NCBI GenBank assembly: GCA_963815115.1
Contig: CAWFFN010000007.1
Location: 704,001 to 768,000 of the forward strand
Direction of reading: 5' to 3'
DNA: 64,000 nt
Source: an uncultured delta proteobacterium
GTDB taxonomy: Bacteria; Desulfobacterota; Binatia; DP-6
Below the pieces are notes generated by a model. That model searched no databases. It saw only the letters and a list, made by a program, of their open reading frames with translations, and had not been told where the DNA came from. The first letter of the stretch is position 1; each line of letters starts with the position of its first letter. Both the position numbers and the translations under genes were made by a program. Below are positions 2,663 to 12,217 of this stretch, piece after piece.

Positions 2663-3373
2663 TCAGCGCGACCGCCCGGCCGGAAGGGCGCTGCGCCGCG
2701 CCTGACGCTCGCCCGCTGCCACCTGGTGGAGCACGCGATCGGGCAGCTCCAGAGCGGTCAGTGCGCCCCCGTAGACCAGACCGGTGTCGATGCCGATCTT
2801 GTACGGCAGATCGACCAGCACCTCCCGCCCGGGCGTGTGGCCGAAGACGATGGTCTCCGGCATGCCGTGGGGGCGCCTGAGGAACTCTTCGCGGATCCAG
2901 AACAGGTCCTCGTCGCTCTGCTGCTCCCAGGGAACATCCGGCCGGATGCCAGCGTGGACGAAGAGGTAACCGCCCCACCGGTAGGCGCGTTCGAGACCCT
3001 CGAGGAACGTGAGGTGCGCTTCGGGAATCGCGGCCTCCACCACCGCGGGCTCCGCGCGCGCGTCGACGCCGTAGCTCCGCACGGCGGCCGAGCCTCCGTT
3101 GGCCAGCCACGAATCGCCCCAGTTCCCCGCCCGTCCGAGGAACGACAGGCACATGTCCTCGTGGTTTCCTTTGAGGAACATCCAGTCGACATCGGTGCGC
3201 TTGCGCGCGTCGAGCAGCAGGTCGATGACGCCCTTCGAGTCCGGCCCGCGGTCGATGTAGTCGCCGACGAAGCAGACGGCGTCGCCGGCGGCCAGCGGGA
3301 GGCCGTCGAGGAGCGCGCCGAGCTCGGCGGGGTTGCCGTGCACGTCACCGATCGCGAACAGCCGCTTGCTCAT
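2663..3373 (-). CDS. Calcineurin-like metallophosphoesterase (PrpA/PphA-like Ser/Thr phosphatase)
   Basis: GDVHG, GDYIDRGPDS, GNHE, FVHAG, FGHTP, IDTG; ATG overlaps the meaB stop (ATGA). Confidence 0.92.
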   Translation of the reverse strand: MSKRLFAIGDVHGNPAELGALLDGLPLAAGDAVCFVGDYIDRGPDSKGVIDLLLDARKRTDVDWMFLKGNHEDMCLSFLGRAGNWGDSWLANGGSAAVRSYGVDARAEPAVVEAAIPEAHLTFLEGLERAYRWGGYLFVHAGIRPDVPWEQQSDEDLFWIREEFLRRPHGMPETIVFGHTPGREVLVDLPYKIGIDTGLVYGGALTALELPDRVLHQVAAGERQARRSALPAGRSR

Positions 3374-4356
3374 GACGGACGATCGCGGATCAGCGCGGCC
3401 AGCGCCGCGTCGTCGCCCAGGATGCGGAGCGCCGCGCTGTAGGGATCGACCGACCCGCGACGCACCGACTCGACCAGGGCGCCGAGGCCGTTGGGATCGG
3501 CGATCAGGCCCGCCTCGAGCCGGCGGCGCATCTCCTCGTCGAGGATGTCGATGACCTCGCCGGCACGCCGTGCGGCGGCACGTCCCGCCCGATCGGGGTC
3601 GTCGTTCGCGAACGTCCGGTGGCGGGCGAGGGCGTCGACGACCGCCTCCACGCCGGCGCCACGGGTCGCTTCCGTGGCCAGCACGGGGATGGACCATGGC
3701 GACGGCGGGCGCAGATGCAGCATCTGCTCGAGCTCCGCGATCATGCGCAGGGCGCCGTCGCGATCGGCCTTGTTGACCACGAAGACGTCGGCGATCTCGA
3801 GCAGTCCCGCCTTCATCACCTGCACTGCGTCCCCGGCCTCGGGCACCAGGACGACGACGATCGAGTCGGCCACGCGCATGACGTCGAGCTCGGTCTGCCC
3901 CACCCCGACGGTCTCGACCAGCACGACGTCGCAGCCGAAGGCGTCGAGGAGACGGACCACGTCGCGCGCTGCACGCGGCAGGCCGCCATGGCTGCCGCGC
4001 GTGGCGAGGCTGCGGATGAACACGCCCGGGTCCAGGAAGTGCGCCTGCATCCGGATGCGGTCGCCGAGCACGGCCCCGCCCGAGAACGGGCTCGACGGGT
4101 CGACGGCGACCACCCCGACCCGGCGGCCCTCGGCACGGACGCGCGCGATCAGGGCGTCGACCAGCGTCGACTTCCCGGCGCCTGGCGGCCCGGTCACCCC
4201 GATCACGTGTGCCCGCCCGGTGTGGGCATAGAGCCGGCTCATCGCTTCCGGTAGCTCCGGCGCGCGGTTCTCGACCAGGGTCATGAGACGCGCCAGCGCC
4301 AGCCGGTCGCCGGCGAGAACACGGTCGACCAGGCTCTCTGCTGCTTCTCCGGTCAC
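3370..4356 (-). CDS. meaB: Methylmalonyl-CoA mutase-associated GTPase MeaB/ArgK
   Basis: GPPGAGKST, VDPSSPFSGGAVLGDRIRM, ETVGVGQ, NKAD. Confidence 0.95.
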   Translation of the reverse strand: MTGEAAESLVDRVLAGDRLALARLMTLVENRAPELPEAMSRLYAHTGRAHVIGVTGPPGAGKSTLVDALIARVRAEGRRVGVVAVDPSSPFSGGAVLGDRIRMQAHFLDPGVFIRSLATRGSHGGLPRAARDVVRLLDAFGCDVVLVETVGVGQTELDVMRVADSIVVVLVPEAGDAVQVMKAGLLEIADVFVVNKADRDGALRMIAELEQMLHLRPPSPWSIPVLATEATRGAGVEAVVDALARHRTFANDDPDRAGRAAARRAGEVIDILDEEMRRRLEAGLIADPNGLGALVESVRRGSVDPYSAALRILGDDAALAALIRDRPS

Positions 4357-4444
4357 AGCTCAGCCGATAGAGAGCCTCCCCCTGTGCGTCAAGCCACGCA
4401 AGGCGTCGCTTGACGCCCCGGGAGGGACACGTCAGATCCGATCG

Positions 4445-4822
4445 ATGCCCTGGCGGGTGGAATCGTCGTTCCTGTACCAGGCGGCACGCAGCGGCTTCGT
4501 GGTCGCCGGCGTCCTGCTGTTCGCGGTCGGTGTCGGCGACATGCTGGCCGGCCGCTCGAAGATCCAGGAATACCGCAGCGTCGTCCGCGAGGTGCCGGCC
4601 CCCGAGCCGCACGATCCGACCGCGCTGTTCCCCAAAGCGAGCGAGGCGCAGGAGCGACACGCGCTTGCGGAGGCGAAGCTCGCCTTCTACCAGCTGCTCT
4701 TCCTCGTCGGGCAGCTCCTCGCGGCGGGTGGCGTGGTGCTGCTCGCGATCGGCGCGTTCCAGCTCAGGCAGCGTACCCTGCGCGTTCCATCCGCCGGCTC
4801 TCTCCCCGGCTCTTTCCATTGA
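4445..4822 (+). CDS. Small two-TM membrane protein
   Basis: Two hydrophobic stretches (FVVAGVLLFAVGVG; LLFLVGQLLAAGGVVLLAIGAF) around a ~45-aa loop. Confidence 0.7.
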   Translation: MPWRVESSFLYQAARSGFVVAGVLLFAVGVGDMLAGRSKIQEYRSVVREVPAPEPHDPTALFPKASEAQERHALAEAKLAFYQLLFLVGQLLAAGGVVLLAIGAFQLRQRTLRVPSAGSLPGSFH

Positions 4823-4868: not shown

Positions 4869-6041
4869 ATGACGTTGTCGGACGTGCAGCGAGGATGGTG
4901 GCGGCGGTTGGGTGTGGCAGAGAGCGAGGCCACCGGCACGTGGCGTGCGGAGCGGCCGGGCGGCGCCGAGTCGACGACGGCCAGCGCGCTCCTCGAGCTG
5001 CTCGCCCGCGCGCTCGGGCTCGAGCGGGCTGCGCTGCTCCTCGAGCAGACCCGAGGCGGGCCCCAGGTTCCCGTCGCCATGTGGGGCGCGGTTCGCCCGA
5101 CGACCGTCGAGCCCGCCGACGACGCCTGGAGCATCGTCCTACCGATGGATGCGGGAGGACGCACCATCGGCCGCGCGCTGCTCGCCGCGCCTGGCGGCCG
5201 CCCGCTGACGGCGGCCGCGCGCGCCCTCGCCCGGCGGCTCGTCGACGGCGCGACGGCGTTGCTCGCGCACACCCAGCTCGAGCACGACCTGCTGCGCGCC
5301 CGCGAGCTGCTCGCTCGCGCCGATCGCCTCGCCGCTCTCGGTACGCTCGCGGCCGGCATCGCCCACGAGATCCGCAACCCGCTCGTGTCCGTCCGCACCT
5401 TCATCGAGCTTCTCCCCGAGCGCCTCCACGACGAGGAGTTTCGCACCGCCTTTCGCGATCTCACGCTGGCGGAGATCGAGCGCATCTGCGGCCTGCTGAA
5501 CGACCTGCTCGCCTTCACGCGCCCGGCGGCTGCCCAGCCCGAGCCGAGCGACCTGAACGCGCTCGTGCTCCAGACCGTGCGGCTGCTCGAGCCCGAGGGA
5601 CGCAAGTGCGGCGTCGCGGTGCGGACGCGCTGCACGGCCATGCCGCCGCTCGTGGCCGTCGACGAGGGCCGTCTCAAGCAGGTCCTGATGAACGTGATCC
5701 TGAATGCCATCCAGGCGTGCTCGGAACGCGGCACCGTCGACGTCAGCACCCACCGTACCCCGGGGACCGACGGGGCCTGGAGCATCGTGGAGGTCGCCGA
5801 CTCCGGGCCGGGCATCCCTCCGGAGGTGGCGCCGCACATCTTCGATCCTTTCGTCACCACCAAGGACACCGGGAGCGGTCTCGGCTTGCACGTCGCCCAT
5901 CGCATCACCAGCGACCACGGCGGAGCCATCCACGCCCGCCGCCGGCCAGGCGGCGGAACGATCTTCGCGATCCATCTCCCCACCGTCGCCCCCACCGTCG
6001 CGCCGAGTATCGCGAGGGAGCGCGATGTCGGCACCGGCTGA
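4869..6041 (+). CDS. Cytoplasmic sensor histidine kinase (GAF-like N-terminus, HisKA, HATPase)
   Basis: AHEIRNPL H-box, NVILNAIQA N-box, DSGPG G1, FDPFVTTK F-box, GSGLGL G2; no TM helix; start uncertain. Confidence 0.9.
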   Translation: MTLSDVQRGWWRRLGVAESEATGTWRAERPGGAESTTASALLELLARALGLERAALLLEQTRGGPQVPVAMWGAVRPTTVEPADDAWSIVLPMDAGGRTIGRALLAAPGGRPLTAAARALARRLVDGATALLAHTQLEHDLLRARELLARADRLAALGTLAAGIAHEIRNPLVSVRTFIELLPERLHDEEFRTAFRDLTLAEIERICGLLNDLLAFTRPAAAQPEPSDLNALVLQTVRLLEPEGRKCGVAVRTRCTAMPPLVAVDEGRLKQVLMNVILNAIQACSERGTVDVSTHRTPGTDGAWSIVEVADSGPGIPPEVAPHIFDPFVTTKDTGSGLGLHVAHRITSDHGGAIHARRRPGGGTIFAIHLPTVAPTVAPSIARERDVGTG

Positions 6042-7404
6042 ACCGCGCCGGCGCGGCGTCCTCCCCCCGCTCTCGCCGGAGGCGGCGCGCGCCGTCCTGG
6101 CCCGGCCACGCCTGCCCCCGGCTGCCGTGCAGGCAGCCGCCGTCGCACGCGAGGCGGCAGCGCTCGCCCTGCCGGTCCGTCTCGAGACCCCGACCGCCGC
6201 CGGGCGCACGCTCCTCGCTCGCGCGCTGCATGCGCTCGGCGGGCGCCCGGGGCCGCTCGTGGCGGCCGAGGGGCGTTGCCGCGCCCTGCACGACCTTCCG
6301 CCCGGCGCCTCCGTGCTCGTCGACCTGGAAACGGTCACGGTGCCGGCTGCGTCGATCCTCGAGGCGTTGCTCGACGACGGATCGGTCTGGCTGCTCGTCG
6401 GGACGGTTCCCGGGCACGCGGTGCCACCGGTGCTCGCCGCGCGCCTCGACGCCGTCGTCCTTCACGTCCCGCCCCTCGCTCAGCGCACCGGCGAGCTGCC
6501 GGCGATCGCGGCGCACGTCTCCGCCGCCCTCGGCGCGCGGCGGGGCAGCTCCCCTCCGCCGTTCTCGCACGATGCGCTCGCCTGGATCGCGGCGCAGCCG
6601 TGGCCCGGCGACCTTCCCGAGCTCGAGGCGGTCGTCGCGCGGGCGCTCCTGCGTGCCGGCGACGGGCCGATCACGGCCTCCCATCTGAGCGGCGAGGAGC
6701 CCGCCACCCGGGAACCCGCGGCGACCACCGGTGCCGGCGACCGCGCGCGCCTCGAGTACCTCGCCGCCGAGATGGCGCACGAGCTGAAGAACCCGCTCGT
6801 CACCATCAAGACCTTCGCCGACCATCTGCCCGCCCTGGTCGACGACGCCGAGCTGCGCGCGCGCTTCGGCGGGCTGGCCAACGAGTCGATCGCGCGCATG
6901 GACGAGCTGCTCGAGAACGTGCTCGCGTTCGCCCGCATGGGGGCGCCGCGGCCTGCGCCGGTGGAGATCGGCCCCCTCCTCGATGGTCTCGTGGCCGAGA
7001 TCGAGCCCGCGCTCGCGGGGCACGCCGTCAGGCTCGACTACGCTCGCGCGAACGGCGCCCGGTGCAGCACCGACGGCGATCAGCTCGCCTACGCGTTGCG
7101 CAACCTGCTGGTCGGGATGCTGCGCGAGCTGCCGCCCGGCGAGGTCCTGCGGGTCGACGGCAGCTCCGCCGGGGTGGTGCGCTTCGGCTTCACCGGTCGC
7201 AATGGAGCCGCGGTCCGCCTGCGTCGGCTGGTGGTGGCCGATGGCGCGCTCGATCCGCATGACCCGACGCTGCTCCCCCTGCCCTTCACCCTCGCGCGCA
7301 GCGTGCTCGAGCGCAACGGCGGCACGCTCGCCGTGCGGGCAGACGCGGACGGGACGACGACGCTCGAAGTGCACTTGCCAGGCGGTGGGACGAACGGAGG
7401 TTGA
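6025..7404 (+). CDS. Hybrid protein: degenerate sigma54-activator AAA+ domain, HisKA domain with intact His, degenerate HATPase
   Basis: PPLAQR and PWPGDLPELEAVVARA match activator C-terminal motifs, but Walker A reads TPTAAGRT and GAFTGA is absent; AHELKNPL retained; G1/G2 boxes lost. Confidence 0.8.
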   Translation: MSAPAEPRRRGVLPPLSPEAARAVLARPRLPPAAVQAAAVAREAAALALPVRLETPTAAGRTLLARALHALGGRPGPLVAAEGRCRALHDLPPGASVLVDLETVTVPAASILEALLDDGSVWLLVGTVPGHAVPPVLAARLDAVVLHVPPLAQRTGELPAIAAHVSAALGARRGSSPPPFSHDALAWIAAQPWPGDLPELEAVVARALLRAGDGPITASHLSGEEPATREPAATTGAGDRARLEYLAAEMAHELKNPLVTIKTFADHLPALVDDAELRARFGGLANESIARMDELLENVLAFARMGAPRPAPVEIGPLLDGLVAEIEPALAGHAVRLDYARANGARCSTDGDQLAYALRNLLVGMLRELPPGEVLRVDGSSAGVVRFGFTGRNGAAVRLRRLVVADGALDPHDPTLLPLPFTLARSVLERNGGTLAVRADADGTTTLEVHLPGGGTNGG

Positions 7405-8878: not shown

Positions 8879-10096
8879 ATGCGGCGCTCCGTGACCGGCA
8901 GCCACGCGGCTGTGCGTCCCGCTCTCGTGGTCGCGCTCGCACGCGCGGCCGCCGGAGAGGCGCTCTCCCGCGACCAGGCGATCGCCCTGCTCGACGATCC
9001 GGCCTGCACCGACCCGCTGCTCGACGTCGCCGGCGCGCGGCGCGACGCGCAGTGGGGCAGCACGGTCACCTACTCCCCGAAGGTCTTCCTGCCCGTCACC
9101 AACCTCTGTCGCGACCGCTGCACCTACTGCACGTTCCGCAAGGACCCCGACGACCCCGACGCCTGGACCATGCTGCCGGCGGACATCGAGGCCTGGTCCG
9201 CGCGCGGCCGCACGCTCGGCTGCAAGGAGGCACTCCTCTGCCTCGGTGACAAGCCCGAGCTGGCCTTCCGGGGCTACCGGGCCACCCTCGCGACGCTCGG
9301 GCACCGCACCACCGCCGAGTACGTCGAGCGAGCCTCCGCCATCGCCCTCGCATGCGGGCTCCTGCCCCACACCAATGCCGGGCTCCTCACCCACGACGAG
9401 ATGGCCCGCCTGCGCGACGTCAACGTCAGCCTCGGGCTCATGCTCGAGAACGTGTCGCCGCGGCTCCGCGGGCGCGGTCAGGTGCACCAGTGGGCCCCGG
9501 ACAAGGAGCCCGCCCTTCGCCTTCGCATGCTGCGCGAGGCGGGCGAGCTGCGCATCCCGTTCACCACCGGGCTCCTGATCGGCATCGGCGAGACCACGGC
9601 GGAGCGCGTCGACACGCTGCTCGCCATTCGCGACCTGCAGCGGGCGCACGGGCACATCCAGGAGGTCATCGTCCAGAACTTCCGCGCCAAGCCCACCATC
9701 CCGCTGGCCGATGCGCCGGAGCCGAGCGCGGTGGATCTCGCCCGCACCATCGCCGTGGCGCGACTCCTCCTCGACCCGGAGGTGAGCGTGCAGGCGCCGC
9801 CCAACCTGTCGCCCGACGATCACGCGCTCCTGCTGCGCGCCGGCCTGAACGACTGGGGCGGCATCTCGCCGCTCACGCCCGACTACGTCAACCCCGAGGC
9901 GCCGTGGCCGCACGTCGCTGCGCTGGCCGCCACGTGCCGCAGCGCCGGCTACACGCTCGCCGAGCGACTCGCCATCTATCCCCGTTACATCGAGCAGCCG
10001 GGCTGGCTCGCGCCCGCGCTGCGACCGCACGTCGAGGCGCTGGCCGCCGAGGCGCGCCGCACCGCGCCGGTAGCGCTGGAGGCATCATCCGCATGA
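8879..10096 (+). CDS. cofG: FO synthase subunit CofG (radical SAM)
   Basis: TYSPKVFLPVTNLCRDRCTYCTF, LPHTNAG, IPFTTG, QAPPNL, NDWGGISP, VNPEAPWP; start may be GTG 8891. Confidence 0.93.
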   Translation: MRRSVTGSHAAVRPALVVALARAAAGEALSRDQAIALLDDPACTDPLLDVAGARRDAQWGSTVTYSPKVFLPVTNLCRDRCTYCTFRKDPDDPDAWTMLPADIEAWSARGRTLGCKEALLCLGDKPELAFRGYRATLATLGHRTTAEYVERASAIALACGLLPHTNAGLLTHDEMARLRDVNVSLGLMLENVSPRLRGRGQVHQWAPDKEPALRLRMLREAGELRIPFTTGLLIGIGETTAERVDTLLAIRDLQRAHGHIQEVIVQNFRAKPTIPLADAPEPSAVDLARTIAVARLLLDPEVSVQAPPNLSPDDHALLLRAGLNDWGGISPLTPDYVNPEAPWPHVAALAATCRSAGYTLAERLAIYPRYIEQPGWLAPALRPHVEALAAEARRTAPVALEASSA

Positions 10097-11349
10097 GCTG
10101 GTTCGACCCCTGGGACGCCATCGAGGCCGTTGCGCTGAACGACGACCCCGTCGAGCGGGCGATCGCCCGCGCCACCCCGGCCATCCGCCCGATCCTCGAC
10201 GGCGCGCTCACCCGCCGCGAGCCCAGCGTGGCCGACTGCGAGACGCTCCTCGGCGCCGAGGGCGACGACCTGGTCGCCCTGGTGCGCACGGCGGACACGA
10301 TCCGCGCCCAGGACGTCGGCGACGAGGTCACCTACGTCGTCAACCGCAACATCAACTTCACCAACGTCTGCTTCGTGAACTGTCAGTTCTGCGCCTTCAA
10401 GCGCCAGCGCTGGGAGTCGGACGCCTACACCCACGGCCTCGACGTCGTCCTCGGCAAGGTCGACGAGGCGATCGCGCGCGGGGCCACCGAGGTGTGCATG
10501 CAGGGTGGCATCAATCCCGACATGGAGGCGTTCACGTACCGGGACATCCTCGTCGCCATCAAGGCGCGCCACCCGCAGCTCCACGTCCACGCCTTCTCCC
10601 CGATGGAGATCATGTACGGGTCGCGACGGACGGGGCTCGCCTTCCCCGAGTACATCGCCATGCTGCGCGACGGCGGCCTCGGGTCGATTCCGGGCACGGC
10701 GGCCGAGATCCTCGACGACGAGGTGCGCGAGGTGCTGTCGCACAAGAAGGTGGACGTCCGCACCTGGGTCGAGATCATCACCACCGCGCACCGCCTCGGC
10801 GTGCCGACCACGTCGACGGTGATGTACGGCCACGTCGAGACCCCCGGCCACATCGCCCGGCACATCGACCTGCTCCGCTCGCTCCAGAAGGAGACCGGCG
10901 GCTTCACGGAGTTCGTTCCCCTCGGCTTCATCTGGGAGAACACCCAGCTCTACCGCGACGGCCGCGTCACGCCCCAGCCGAAGGGCCTGCGCGACCTTCG
11001 CATCTACGCGGCGAGCCGGCTGATGCTGCGGGGCTGGATCGACAACCTGCAGACGTCGTGGGTGAAGCTCGGCCACCGCCTGTCGCAGCTCACGCTCCGC
11101 GCGGGCTGCAACGACTTCGGCGGCACGTTGATGGAGGAGAGCATCTCGCGCGAGGCGGGTGCCGACGCGGGAGAGTACACCTCGGCGGAGGAGATCGAGG
11201 CGCTGGTGCGCGCCATGGGGCGCGCTCCCGTGCAGCGCACGACGCTCTACGGGCGGATCGGGGAGGACGGTGCCGCGCACGACCATCACGGTGCTGGCGG
11301 GTGGCGTGGGAGGAGCCCGCTTCCTGCGGGGCCTCTCGCGGCGCACTGA
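10093..11349 (+). CDS. cofH: FO synthase subunit CofH (radical SAM)
   Basis: VNRNINFTNVCFVNCQFCAF, PGTAAEIL, QTSWVKLG, NDFGGTLMEESISR; ATGA overlap with cofG. Confidence 0.92.
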   Translation: MSWFDPWDAIEAVALNDDPVERAIARATPAIRPILDGALTRREPSVADCETLLGAEGDDLVALVRTADTIRAQDVGDEVTYVVNRNINFTNVCFVNCQFCAFKRQRWESDAYTHGLDVVLGKVDEAIARGATEVCMQGGINPDMEAFTYRDILVAIKARHPQLHVHAFSPMEIMYGSRRTGLAFPEYIAMLRDGGLGSIPGTAAEILDDEVREVLSHKKVDVRTWVEIITTAHRLGVPTTSTVMYGHVETPGHIARHIDLLRSLQKETGGFTEFVPLGFIWENTQLYRDGRVTPQPKGLRDLRIYAASRLMLRGWIDNLQTSWVKLGHRLSQLTLRAGCNDFGGTLMEESISREAGADAGEYTSAEEIEALVRAMGRAPVQRTTLYGRIGEDGAAHDHHGAGGWRGRSPLPAGPLAAH

Positions 11350-12217
11350 TCCCCGGCGGCTCGCCATCATCGGCAACACCGGCGACGACGAGGAGTTCTT
11401 CGGGCTCCACGTCGCGCCCGACCTCGACACGGTGCTCTACACGCTCACCGGCCGGGCCGATCCGGATCGGGGCTGGGGCCTCGGCGGCGAGACCTTCGCG
11501 TGCCTGGGCGCCCTCGGCCGGCTCGGGGAGCCCACCTGGTTCCAGCTCGGCGACCGTGATCTGGCGACGCACCTGTGGCGGACCATGCACCTGCGGGCGG
11601 GGTGGCCGCTGTCCCGCGTCACCCGCGAGCTCGCGCGCCGCCACGGCTTGCGCGCCACGCTGCTCCCGATGAGCGACGATCGCGTGCGCACCTTCGTCCA
11701 CACCGAGTCGGGCCGCCTGCCCTTCCAGGCCTACCTGGTGCGCGGGCGTGGACGCGGCCGCGTGCGCCGCATCGAGATCGCCGGCGCGGCCCGCGCGCGT
11801 CCCGCCCCCGGGGTGCTCGCCGCGCTCGCTCACAGCCGAGCCATCCTGATCGCGCCCTCGAACCCGCTGGTCTCGGTCGGGCCGATCCTCGCCGTTCCGC
11901 CGATCCGTCGCGCCCTCACCCGCCGCCGCGCGCCGGCGGCGGCGATCTGCCCGCTGGTCGGTGGCCGACCCGTTCGCGGTCCGCTCCATCGGATGCTGCG
12001 CGGGCTCGGGATGGAGGTGTCCCCGCCGGGCATCGCTCGCCTCTATCGCGGGCTGATCGACTGCTTCGTGCTCGACGGGGCCGACGCACGCTGGACGACG
12101 GCGGTGCGCGCCCTCGGCATGCGGGTGCTGCTCACCGACACCCTGATGCACACGCCCGCCGACGCCGCCCGGCTTGCAGCCACCGTGCTGCGCGCGCTAG
12201 GCGTGGAGGCCACGTGA
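11270..12217 (+). CDS. cofD: 2-phospho-L-lactate/PEP transferase CofD/FbiA
   Basis: LAGGVGGARF, NTGDD, PDLDTVLYTL, WFQLGDRDLATH, PSNPLVSVGPIL; GGAGG before GTG 11270. Confidence 0.93.
   Translation: MPRTTITVLAGGVGGARFLRGLSRRTDPRRLAIIGNTGDDEEFFGLHVAPDLDTVLYTLTGRADPDRGWGLGGETFACLGALGRLGEPTWFQLGDRDLATHLWRTMHLRAGWPLSRVTRELARRHGLRATLLPMSDDRVRTFVHTESGRLPFQAYLVRGRGRGRVRRIEIAGAARARPAPGVLAALAHSRAILIAPSNPLVSVGPILAVPPIRRALTRRRAPAAAICPLVGGRPVRGPLHRMLRGLGMEVSPPGIARLYRGLIDCFVLDGADARWTTAVRALGMRVLLTDTLMHTPADAARLAATVLRALGVEAT

Follow-up and report, generated by a model that had tools for sequence, protein, structure and literature searches.

A conserved fusion of AAA+-like and histidine kinase-like domains encoded beside a sigma54 activator in an uncultured bacterial class

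We analyzed a window of 64,000 nucleotides (nt) from an uncultured delta proteobacterium of the class Binatia (GenBank assembly GCA_963815115.1, contig CAWFFN010000007.1, positions 704,001 to 768,000 of the forward strand; G+C content about 72%). In this window an open reading frame (ORF) lies between the genes for a histidine kinase and an NtrC-type sigma54 activator. Its product, the fusion protein, joins an N-terminal half resembling the AAA+ domain of the activator to a C-terminal half resembling the transmitter of the kinase, which consists of the dimerization and histidine phosphotransfer (DHp) domain and the catalytic and ATP-binding (CA) domain. The fusion ORF is a real gene under purifying selection, and represents a conserved family rather than local decay. 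Nearly all catalytic residues have been removed from the protein with the phospho-His site left untouched, and it is found with one clade of activators in many families of an uncultured class. It is probably a third player in a two-component signaling switch.

A conserved family and its two halves

A word-indexed search returned 231 proteins. Among the best 120 of these 231 hits, with 46-90% identity and about 450-475 amino acids (aa), 117 carry both AAA_lid_14 and HisKA, three are HisKA-only fragments, and Sigma54_activat or HATPase_c is listed for none. The architecture put forward in an initial annotation of this DNA thus recurs in the relatives. When all representatives were searched exhaustively, 91 clusters were obtained at E <= 1e-30, among them a longer form of about 560-650 aa; the protein of the window belongs to the short form. 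Within the class, 150 of 401 genomes have the gene, with rare exceptions only once each, and the source genome has a single copy (the tallies over the 401 genomes include four unpublished ones, G378, G535, G587 and G545). Nine of 201 genomes sampled across the phylum carry it, usually with one match each. By family, it was found in 23/24 genomes of f1, 50/64 of f86, 18/19 of f89, 14/18 of f90, 22/26 of f92, 5/5 of f97, 3/3 of f3 and 6/8 of f85, and was not found in f4 (0/55), f5 (0/94), f93 (0/27) and f2 (0/13). Two clusters in the ESM Atlas with the same architecture are labeled mostly Candidatus Binatota and Myxococcota.

The sequence of the gene is constrained in both halves. For the four closest same-genus pairs, Nei-Gojobori dN/dS is 0.09-0.25 when the entire gene is taken, with values of 0.14-0.31 in the AAA+-like part and 0.03-0.41 in the CA-like part; only these pairs are quoted because farther pairs are saturated, dS saturating near 0.5 at a G+C content of third codon positions (GC3) of 0.9, and L124 is a partial sequence of 332 aa. 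Together with the presence in 150 of the 401 class genomes, this speaks for a conserved gene and not a local wreck. Among 33 short forms, mean pairwise identity is 0.50 in the pseudo-AAA+ part, 0.50 in the lid, 0.68 in the DHp domain and 0.55 in the CA-like domain, and 0.18 in the linker. The GC3 of the ORF is 0.90 in both halves, like that of the neighboring genes. An AlphaFold2 model made from an alignment of 95 sequences has a mean predicted local distance difference test score (pLDDT) of 89.6, with values below 50 only at both ends and at residues 229-235.

The likeness of the N-terminal half to the activator, initially proposed by eye, holds statistically over the complete AAA+ module. 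In the Pfam scan, the fusion protein matched AAA_lid_14 at residues 153-224 (33.7 bits, cut-off 27), with no match to Sigma54_activat (PF00158), HATPase_c (PF02518), helix-turn-helix (HTH or HTH_8) or PAS, and in BLASTP against the activator of the window only the lid aligned (30% identity, 81 aa, E 9e-8). Using hhalign, the short-form family aligned with the partner activators at a probability of 98.8 and E 8.9e-17 over 185 columns, which span the whole module (44-228 in the short forms, 158-389 in the activators). This alignment pairs PVRLETPTAAGRTLLARALH of the short forms with the activator segment, reproducing the Walker A pairing of the initial annotation, and its gaps fall exactly at the GAFTGA/L1 segment (25 columns) and at the hairpin preceding sensor I. 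In the model, residues 20-224 match the AAA+ domain of FleQ (7ejw_D; VIA Z 16.9, root-mean-square deviation 3.2, 199 aa), and also NtrC1 (1ny5_A, VIA Z 16.3) and PspF (VIA Z 15.6).

The residues for nucleotide use have been lost to different extents in the two forms, as tallied over 95 aligned members (45 short and 50 long forms). In the protein of the window, the Walker A reads PTAAGRT, and the Walker B Glu, the L1/GAFTGA loop, the pre-sensor-I hairpin and the sensor II Arg are absent. Among the short forms one of 45 has the Walker A Lys and among the long forms 33 of 50, whereas the Walker B Glu and the sensor II Arg are each found in none of the short and four of the long forms. In contrast, the Arg at the position of the trans Arg finger (the Arg of YRL in the activators; by motif position NtrC1 R299 or PspF R168) is retained by 39 of the 45 short forms and by 33 of the 50 long ones; R299 of NtrC1 has been described to work in trans (PMC7175178). 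The protein of the window retains it as R140, together with ARALH (65-69) and WPGD (193-196). None of 49 aligned members has a GAFTGA-like motif, the segment in its place being shortened and variable, and the HTH position of the activators is taken by the HisKA transmitter. The description of the AAA+ domain as dead thus stands for the short-form clade, including the protein of the window, and does not extend to the family as a whole, as the Walker A Lys of the long forms shows.

The long forms carry additional features of an activator. Their N-terminal region resembles a receiver (Pfam Response_reg, E 3e-7 to 6.5e-6, below the cut-off), with G, E, N or S and never Asp in the acceptor column. 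Unlike the protein of the window, they match PF00158 (E 1e-17 to 1e-19). The glycine frame of the P-loop is present in 49-50 of 50, and the Lys has been lost repeatedly, in 17 of 50, to Q, A, R and others. The family as a whole is thus more aptly seen as a complete look-alike of an activator (receiver, AAA+ and lid) in which a look-alike of a kinase transmitter replaces the DNA-binding domain. A Gln in place of the P-loop Lys, with the full glycine frame (GE.GCGQ or GEVGSGQ), was seen in L144-L146 (f86), L153, and P0189/P0192/P0221/P0224/P0226/P0231. Since this change recurs within a lineage, it suggests a nucleotide or phosphate site that may have been changed rather than abandoned. A His-Asp-His-Asp relay inside the long forms was considered and rejected on the basis of the acceptor column.

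For the C-terminal half, the resemblance to a kinase was likewise borne out. Pfam places HisKA (PF00512) at residues 244-307 (38.7 bits, cut-off 26.9); BLASTP against the upstream kinase gave 34% identity over 136 aa, from the DHp domain to the N-box (E 9e-16), and hhalign against 24 upstream-kinase transmitters gave a probability of 99.8 (E 2.2e-29) over 215 columns that cover both DHp and CA. In the genomes G000, G039, G173 and G567, the C-half matches no kinase better than the adjacent upstream one, or no other kinase at all. The alpha-1 helices under the His differ by conservative changes only (NPLVTIKTF versus NPLVSVRTF). Covariation of the DHp specificity residues between kinase and fusion protein was tried and set aside, as both are too conserved to inform. 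Residues 232-456 of the model match the DHp-CA cores of DivL (residues 232-453, VIA Z 16.9, 209 aa), HK853, CusS, SrrB and RetS (VIA Z 15.5), although fold likeness of this level is common to all HisKA kinases.

As initially proposed, the ATP boxes are gone while the His stays. The CA-like domain is without the Mg/ATP Asn of the N-box, the DxGxG of G1 and the GxGxG of G2, and in the hhalign alignment GSGLGL stands opposite LLPLPF and the second N-box Asn opposite a Gly. Over the aligned members, this Asn is found in none of the 45 short and two of the 50 long forms, the G1 Asp in 9/95 and the middle G2 Gly in 0/95; no relative has either the G-boxes or GAFTGA. On the other hand, the His (His252 in the window, nt 6778-6780) is present in all 95 members, the Glu that follows it (H+1, Glu253) in 93 and the Asn at H+4 (Asn256) in all 95. 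In HisKA kinases, a Thr or Asn at H+4 has been described as required for phosphatase activity and the acidic residue at H+1 for kinase activity (PMC3510030).

Association with the activator and with histidine kinases

A motif scan recognized the fusion gene in 47 loci from 46 genomes. In 46 of these loci, an activator with an intact Walker A is encoded on the same strand, 1117-1184 nt past the H-box, and the one locus in which it was missed runs off the contig. The 46 partner activators are 47-83% identical to that of the window, share without exception the acceptor Asp, the Walker A and B motifs and the Arg fingers, and form a single clade with a support of 95/95 in a maximum likelihood (ML) tree of 41 sequences spanning receiver (REC), AAA+ and lid. 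The activator of the window has the REC acceptor Asp58, an AAA+ domain with GESGTGK and DE, a lid and HTH_8, and its L1 loop reads GSFTDA. Among the 46, this loop is G[AS]FTDA in 42, GAFTNA in three and GAFTGA in one, and marks the clade as distinct and well conserved; GAFTDA has been listed as a sigma54-compatible variant in Desulfovibrio vulgaris (PMC4641369). The N-terminal part of the fusion protein has the adjacent activator as its best activator match in G173 and G567, and as its third best in G039.

The upstream kinase, by contrast, is present in 26 of the 47 loci only. These comprise all short-form loci of f1, with a cytoplasmic kinase, those of four genomes from other parts of the phylum, and those of three f86 genomes, in which the kinase has seven transmembrane segments and a GAF domain (7TM-GAF kinase). 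It is absent from the loci of f92, f89, f90, f97, f85, f3 and f87, which hold enough sequence to show one. The trio of kinase, adaptor and activator that the initial annotation envisaged is therefore not the conserved unit; because the activator is found in 46 loci and the kinase in only 26, the conserved unit is the fusion protein with the activator. In one further locus, that of G413 (L153 4344-5560), the upstream kinase is split into overlapping ORFs, one with GAF and H-box (221 aa) and one with HATPase_c (191 aa), which may be a frameshift or an assembly error.

A second type of kinase accompanies part of the family. In 12 of the 23 loci with enough downstream sequence, a REC-HisKA-HATPase_c hybrid of about 370-390 aa directly follows the activator on its 3' side, and the same hybrid was identified by Pfam in G143, G203 and G418; in six such loci the next ORF, of about 230 aa, matches no Pfam family. 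The module may thus comprise four or five genes in these relatives. The receiver of the G143 hybrid is 41% identical to the receiver of the activator in the window. Neither the hybrid nor the ORF of about 230 aa is found at the 3' side of the activator in the window, and the source genome has no clear orthologue of the hybrid.

Proposed function and related systems

It is likely that the fusion protein acts as an accessory regulator of the adjacent activator. To the more specific mechanism, which combines His/Asn chemistry on the receiver of the activator with AAA+ docking, we give an even chance or slightly less. As the N, G1 and G2 boxes are missing, the CA-like domain should not bind ATP or autophosphorylate, as in ChpT, which has been described as a kinase fold that binds no ATP (PMC3433190). 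The joint retention of His, Glu and Asn favors live phosphoryl chemistry at His252 over a merely steric role, and the resemblance of the DHp face to that of the cognate-looking kinase makes the receiver of the activator the likeliest substrate. The fusion protein would dimerize through its DHp domain, dock onto this receiver and exchange phosphoryl groups with it, serving as an Asn-dependent phosphatase and/or as a His phospho-sink or phospho-carrier. Without autophosphorylation, any phosphoryl group on the His would come from the receiver or, in trans, from the CA domain of a true kinase; as the upstream kinase is found in only 26 of the 47 loci, DHp pairing with it would be at most facultative.

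With the residues for cis use of nucleotide lost, and the trans Arg finger, the ARALH helix and the lid kept, the AAA+-like module is read as a targeting or regulatory part that may touch the AAA+ domain of the activator. Retention of these elements is the pattern expected of a subunit packing on that domain. Docking could couple the assembly state of the activator to dephosphorylation, or cap the ring, and where the P-loop has been retained, in the long forms, nucleotide may serve as a further input. A joint claim goes further, and we consider it rather unlikely: the pseudo-AAA+ module would insert into or cap the ring or dimer of the activator, thereby bringing a dimer with His/Asn phosphatase or phospho-sink activity to the receivers. 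Ring assembly would then be tied to signal termination or to phosphoryl recycling with a true kinase, in a nucleotide-dependent manner in the long forms. If this is true, it would represent a three-component logic of kinase, pseudo-subunit and activator that is undescribed for sigma54 systems. Complex prediction between the AAA+ domain of the activator (140-400, 46 rows) and the N-half of the fusion protein (1-232, 94 rows) gave an ipSAE of 0.00 in both runs, which were made without controls and speak neither for nor against binding.

Several points weigh against the proposed mechanism. That the genes are adjacent speaks for a functional link but does not reveal how the protein works. Neither an invariant His nor the kinase-specific Glu at H+1 would be required in a pure phosphatase, and a pure carrier of the ChpT type is normally charged by a receiver, while the sole internal receiver, that of the long forms, is without an acceptor Asp. 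The AAA+ part may be only a structural scaffold, because the P-loop is gone from the short forms and its Lys has repeatedly disappeared in the long ones (17/50). A 443-aa relative in G036 (L104 8190-9521; Sigma54_activ_2, lid and HisKA), located between mreB and an amidohydrolase gene, has no adjoining kinase or activator. Whether the N-part arose from a duplicated partner activator was considered, but the ML tree does not show it: the tree resolves no sister and groups the middle proteins weakly (76/0), their branches (1.0-2.5) being 5-10 times longer than the others (0.13-0.56). The source genome carries rpoN, and a search of the window for sigma54 promoters brought up none that exceeds chance, with 23 matches at two or fewer mismatches versus 16.5 +/- 3.9 expected and none of them beside the operon. 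Members of the family have been seen solely in metagenomes or metagenome-assembled genomes of uncultured lineages.

Control of the activator might also be achieved by binding alone. In the precedent of NifL, a kinase homologue described as being without kinase activity holds the AAA+ domain of NifA from oligomerizing (PMC12998190), and the fusion protein could similarly be a stoichiometric anti-activator that, with its DHp and CA-like half or as a whole, binds the activator AAA+ domain and blocks ring formation, with no phosphoryl chemistry involved. It is, after all, a kinase-like protein without ATP boxes that is encoded beside an activator, and translational coupling would favor stoichiometric synthesis. 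Nevertheless, we regard this as improbable, as the (nearly) invariant His, H+1 Glu and H+4 Asn are needless for a purely steric inhibitor; moreover, NifL is described as requiring ADP in its GHKL domain, whereas the nucleotide boxes of the fusion protein are gone and its Pfam scan reveals no PAS or other sensor domain. The possibility that the fusion protein is a decaying remnant or a mis-called ORF, left without a role after a gene fusion, is hardly credible. Although all ATP-dependent catalytic motifs of both parent families are gone from the copy in the window, decay is at odds with its presence in 150/401 genomes, a dN/dS of 0.09-0.25, domains conserved far above the linker, a mean pLDDT of 89.6 and a GC3 of 0.90.

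The target could, instead, be the kinase. In mixed dimers made through its DHp domain with the true kinase, the fusion protein might block this kinase in the manner of RetS, which has been reported to disrupt the DHp dimer interface of GacS (PMC8498467), or might be phosphorylated on His252 in trans by the CA domain of the kinase and hand the phosphate on, as in the relay suggested in the initial annotation. Consistent with either, the C-half is closest to the adjacent kinase in four genomes, with an hhalign probability of 99.8 over the whole transmitter, the kinase-specific Glu at H+1 persists in 93/95 members despite the loss of their own ATP site, and the fusion and kinase genes share 17 nt. 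We nonetheless judge these options unlikely, since the upstream kinase is missing from 21 of the 47 loci, including whole families, while the activator persists. In many of the loci without it, the sole nearby kinase is a REC-HisKA-HATPase_c hybrid, and in G567 the hybrid is not among the matches of the long-form query (E <= 1e-8), the C-part matching only the upstream kinase.

The fusion protein belongs with the kinase-derived accessory regulators of two-component and sigma54 systems, and is unusual in joining look-alikes of both partners. With ChpT and Spo0B, as these have been described, it shares a DHp domain of the four-helix-bundle type with a phosphorylatable His and a following kinase-like alpha/beta domain, which in the fusion protein, given the missing ATP boxes, would likewise be unable to use ATP. 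Unlike the fusion protein, ChpT and Spo0B have no AAA+ module and shuttle phosphate between the receivers of a relay; the receiver of the long-form fusion protein is without Asp, and no phosphorylatable intermediate receiver is evident. Its DHp domain is an ordinary HisKA of the NtrB/AtoS/ZraS type, and the likeness to ChpT/Spo0B is here one of features. Like the fusion protein, NifL is kinase-derived and encoded beside a sigma54 activator, and is described as controlling NifA by direct contact. Its DH and GHKL domains have been reported to bind the AAA+ domain of NifA as a NifL2:NifA2 complex that blocks oligomerization (PMC12998190). In this account NifL senses through PAS domains, its GHKL domain is intact and takes up ADP, and its His is left unused; the fusion protein is the reverse, with the boxes lost and the His, Glu and Asn kept, and has an activator-like AAA+ module of its own, unlike NifL. 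RedE of the Myxococcus RedCDEF system has been described as resembling a kinase but not phosphorylating itself; it receives a phosphoryl group from elsewhere and dephosphorylates RedF (PMC2755868). By this description, RedE appears to have no AAA+ module and to act on a single-domain regulator.

On the activator side, the fusion protein resembles the GAFTGA-variant activators, in that both have an AAA+ domain of the enhancer-binding clade and some members of that group are unable to contact sigma54. Mixed activator assemblies occur, as in the FleQ/FleT hetero-oligomer. HrpR and HrpS have been described as co-operating paralogous activator subunits (PMC3105312). However, GAFTGA-variant and mixed-ring activators keep the ATPase motifs and most keep a DNA-binding domain, whereas in the fusion protein the HTH is replaced by a transmitter and the short form is without both sigma54-contact loops.

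The DHp-CA fold is also shared with DivL and RetS, in which it serves protein-protein regulation and not autophosphorylation. DivL has a Tyr in place of the His, and RetS is not known to need its own His; in contrast to both, the His of the fusion family is invariant. The NmpRSTU system of Myxococcus was rejected as a match, as NmpS is described as an active REC-kinase hybrid (PMC6211767). In the literature on sigma54 activators, pseudokinases, ChpT/Spo0B and NifL/NifA we found no description of the present architecture, although census supplements could list it, and the initial annotation, which knew of no described system of this kind, agrees with the literature searched. NCBIfam scans of the protein of the window and two long forms returned no family at cut-off, and database names are generic ('signal transduction histidine kinase', 'sigma 54-interacting transcriptional regulator', 'response regulator AtoC').

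NifL, RedE, ChpT and RetS each reshape a textbook signaling module as an accessory, and each revealed a new control principle. If phosphate exchange and AAA+ docking are both true of the fusion protein, it would provide a new way of coupling activator assembly to the state of phosphorylation. It also appears to be a clean natural case of pseudo-enzymes that evolved from both members of a cognate pair.

Gene borders, feature positions and neighboring genes

The kinase, fusion and activator genes lie head to tail on the + strand (Table 1). The fusion ORF starts at an ATG preceded by GAGGGAG, so that it overlaps the kinase gene, whose stop codon is at 6039-6041, by 17 nt. Its TGA is separated by one base from the GTG of the activator gene, which stands behind GGAGG. 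The reading of starts, stops and ribosome sites confirms the intact ORF and the tight borders noted initially, and the fusion gene is translationally coupled to both neighbors. The kinase gene is the first of the operon, 3' of an intergenic stretch of lower G+C content with a TTGACT-like box; the N-terminal 150 aa or so of its product are without a Pfam match and precede HisKA and HATPase_c. In the NCBIfam scan this kinase is AtoS/ZraS-like, with scores under the cut-offs.

Table 1. Positions of the fusion ORF, its domains, its neighbors in the window and related features in other loci (locus handles precede positions outside the window).
Feature	Position	Strand	Evidence
Upstream cytoplasmic histidine kinase, 390 aa	4869..6041	+	Pfam HisKA E 1.7e-11, HATPase_c E 6.1e-26 (intact)
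Fusion ORF, 459 aa: pseudo-AAA+ (sigma54-activator type), DHp with His, pseudo-CA	6025..7404	+	
Residues 20-224: AAA+ fold of enhancer-binding-protein type, alpha/beta subdomain and lid	6082..6696	+	hhalign, VIA, residue tallies
Residues 225-240: variable linker, low model confidence	6697..6744	+	Identity 0.18, low pLDDT
Residues 241-310: DHp (HisKA) helical hairpin, H-box AHELKNP	6745..6954	+	Pfam HisKA 38.7 bits
Residues 311-456: CA-like (Bergerat-fold) domain without ATP boxes	6955..7392	+	hhalign, tallies, fold matches
Partner NtrC-type sigma54 activator, 477 aa	7406..8839	+	Pfam Sigma54_activat E 5.4e-68, Response_reg E 7e-31, AAA_lid_14, HTH_8
Hybrid kinase in other loci	L135 8862-10037, L143 8928-10037, L145 9084-10214, L153 9160-10311, L138 9326-10435		
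Hybrid kinase in other loci, minus strand	L136 3070-4221, L142 2949-4058, L150 3019-4164, L097 about 5496-6599	-	
7TM-GAF-kinase / beta-ketoacyl-synthase observation	L099 4033-5364, L100 2416-3663, L102 12638-13927(-), L145 2129-3520		

The 7TM-GAF kinase of some relatives matches the PrsK model (TIGR02916) over its full length, at 172.7 bits versus a cut-off of 300. In these loci a beta-ketoacyl-synthase gene lies 5' of the kinase, as the adjacent called gene in G173, G142 and G567 and two genes further in G039. On the 3' side of the activator, genes for a DUF1848 protein, a DinG-like helicase and Lon were seen in G173, G037 and G142.

In the window itself, two radical-SAM genes, one of them with a CofH/MqnC C-terminal region, and cofD follow the activator at 8879-12217, and look like F420 biosynthesis genes. 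Close to the module, G143 likewise has cofD and a radical-SAM gene, and G076 and G236 each have a radical-SAM gene. The divergent neighbor, at 2663-4819 on the minus strand, is an ORF of 718 aa with a calcineurin-like phosphoesterase domain at its C-terminus, and a Metallophos gene is located near the module in G143 as well.

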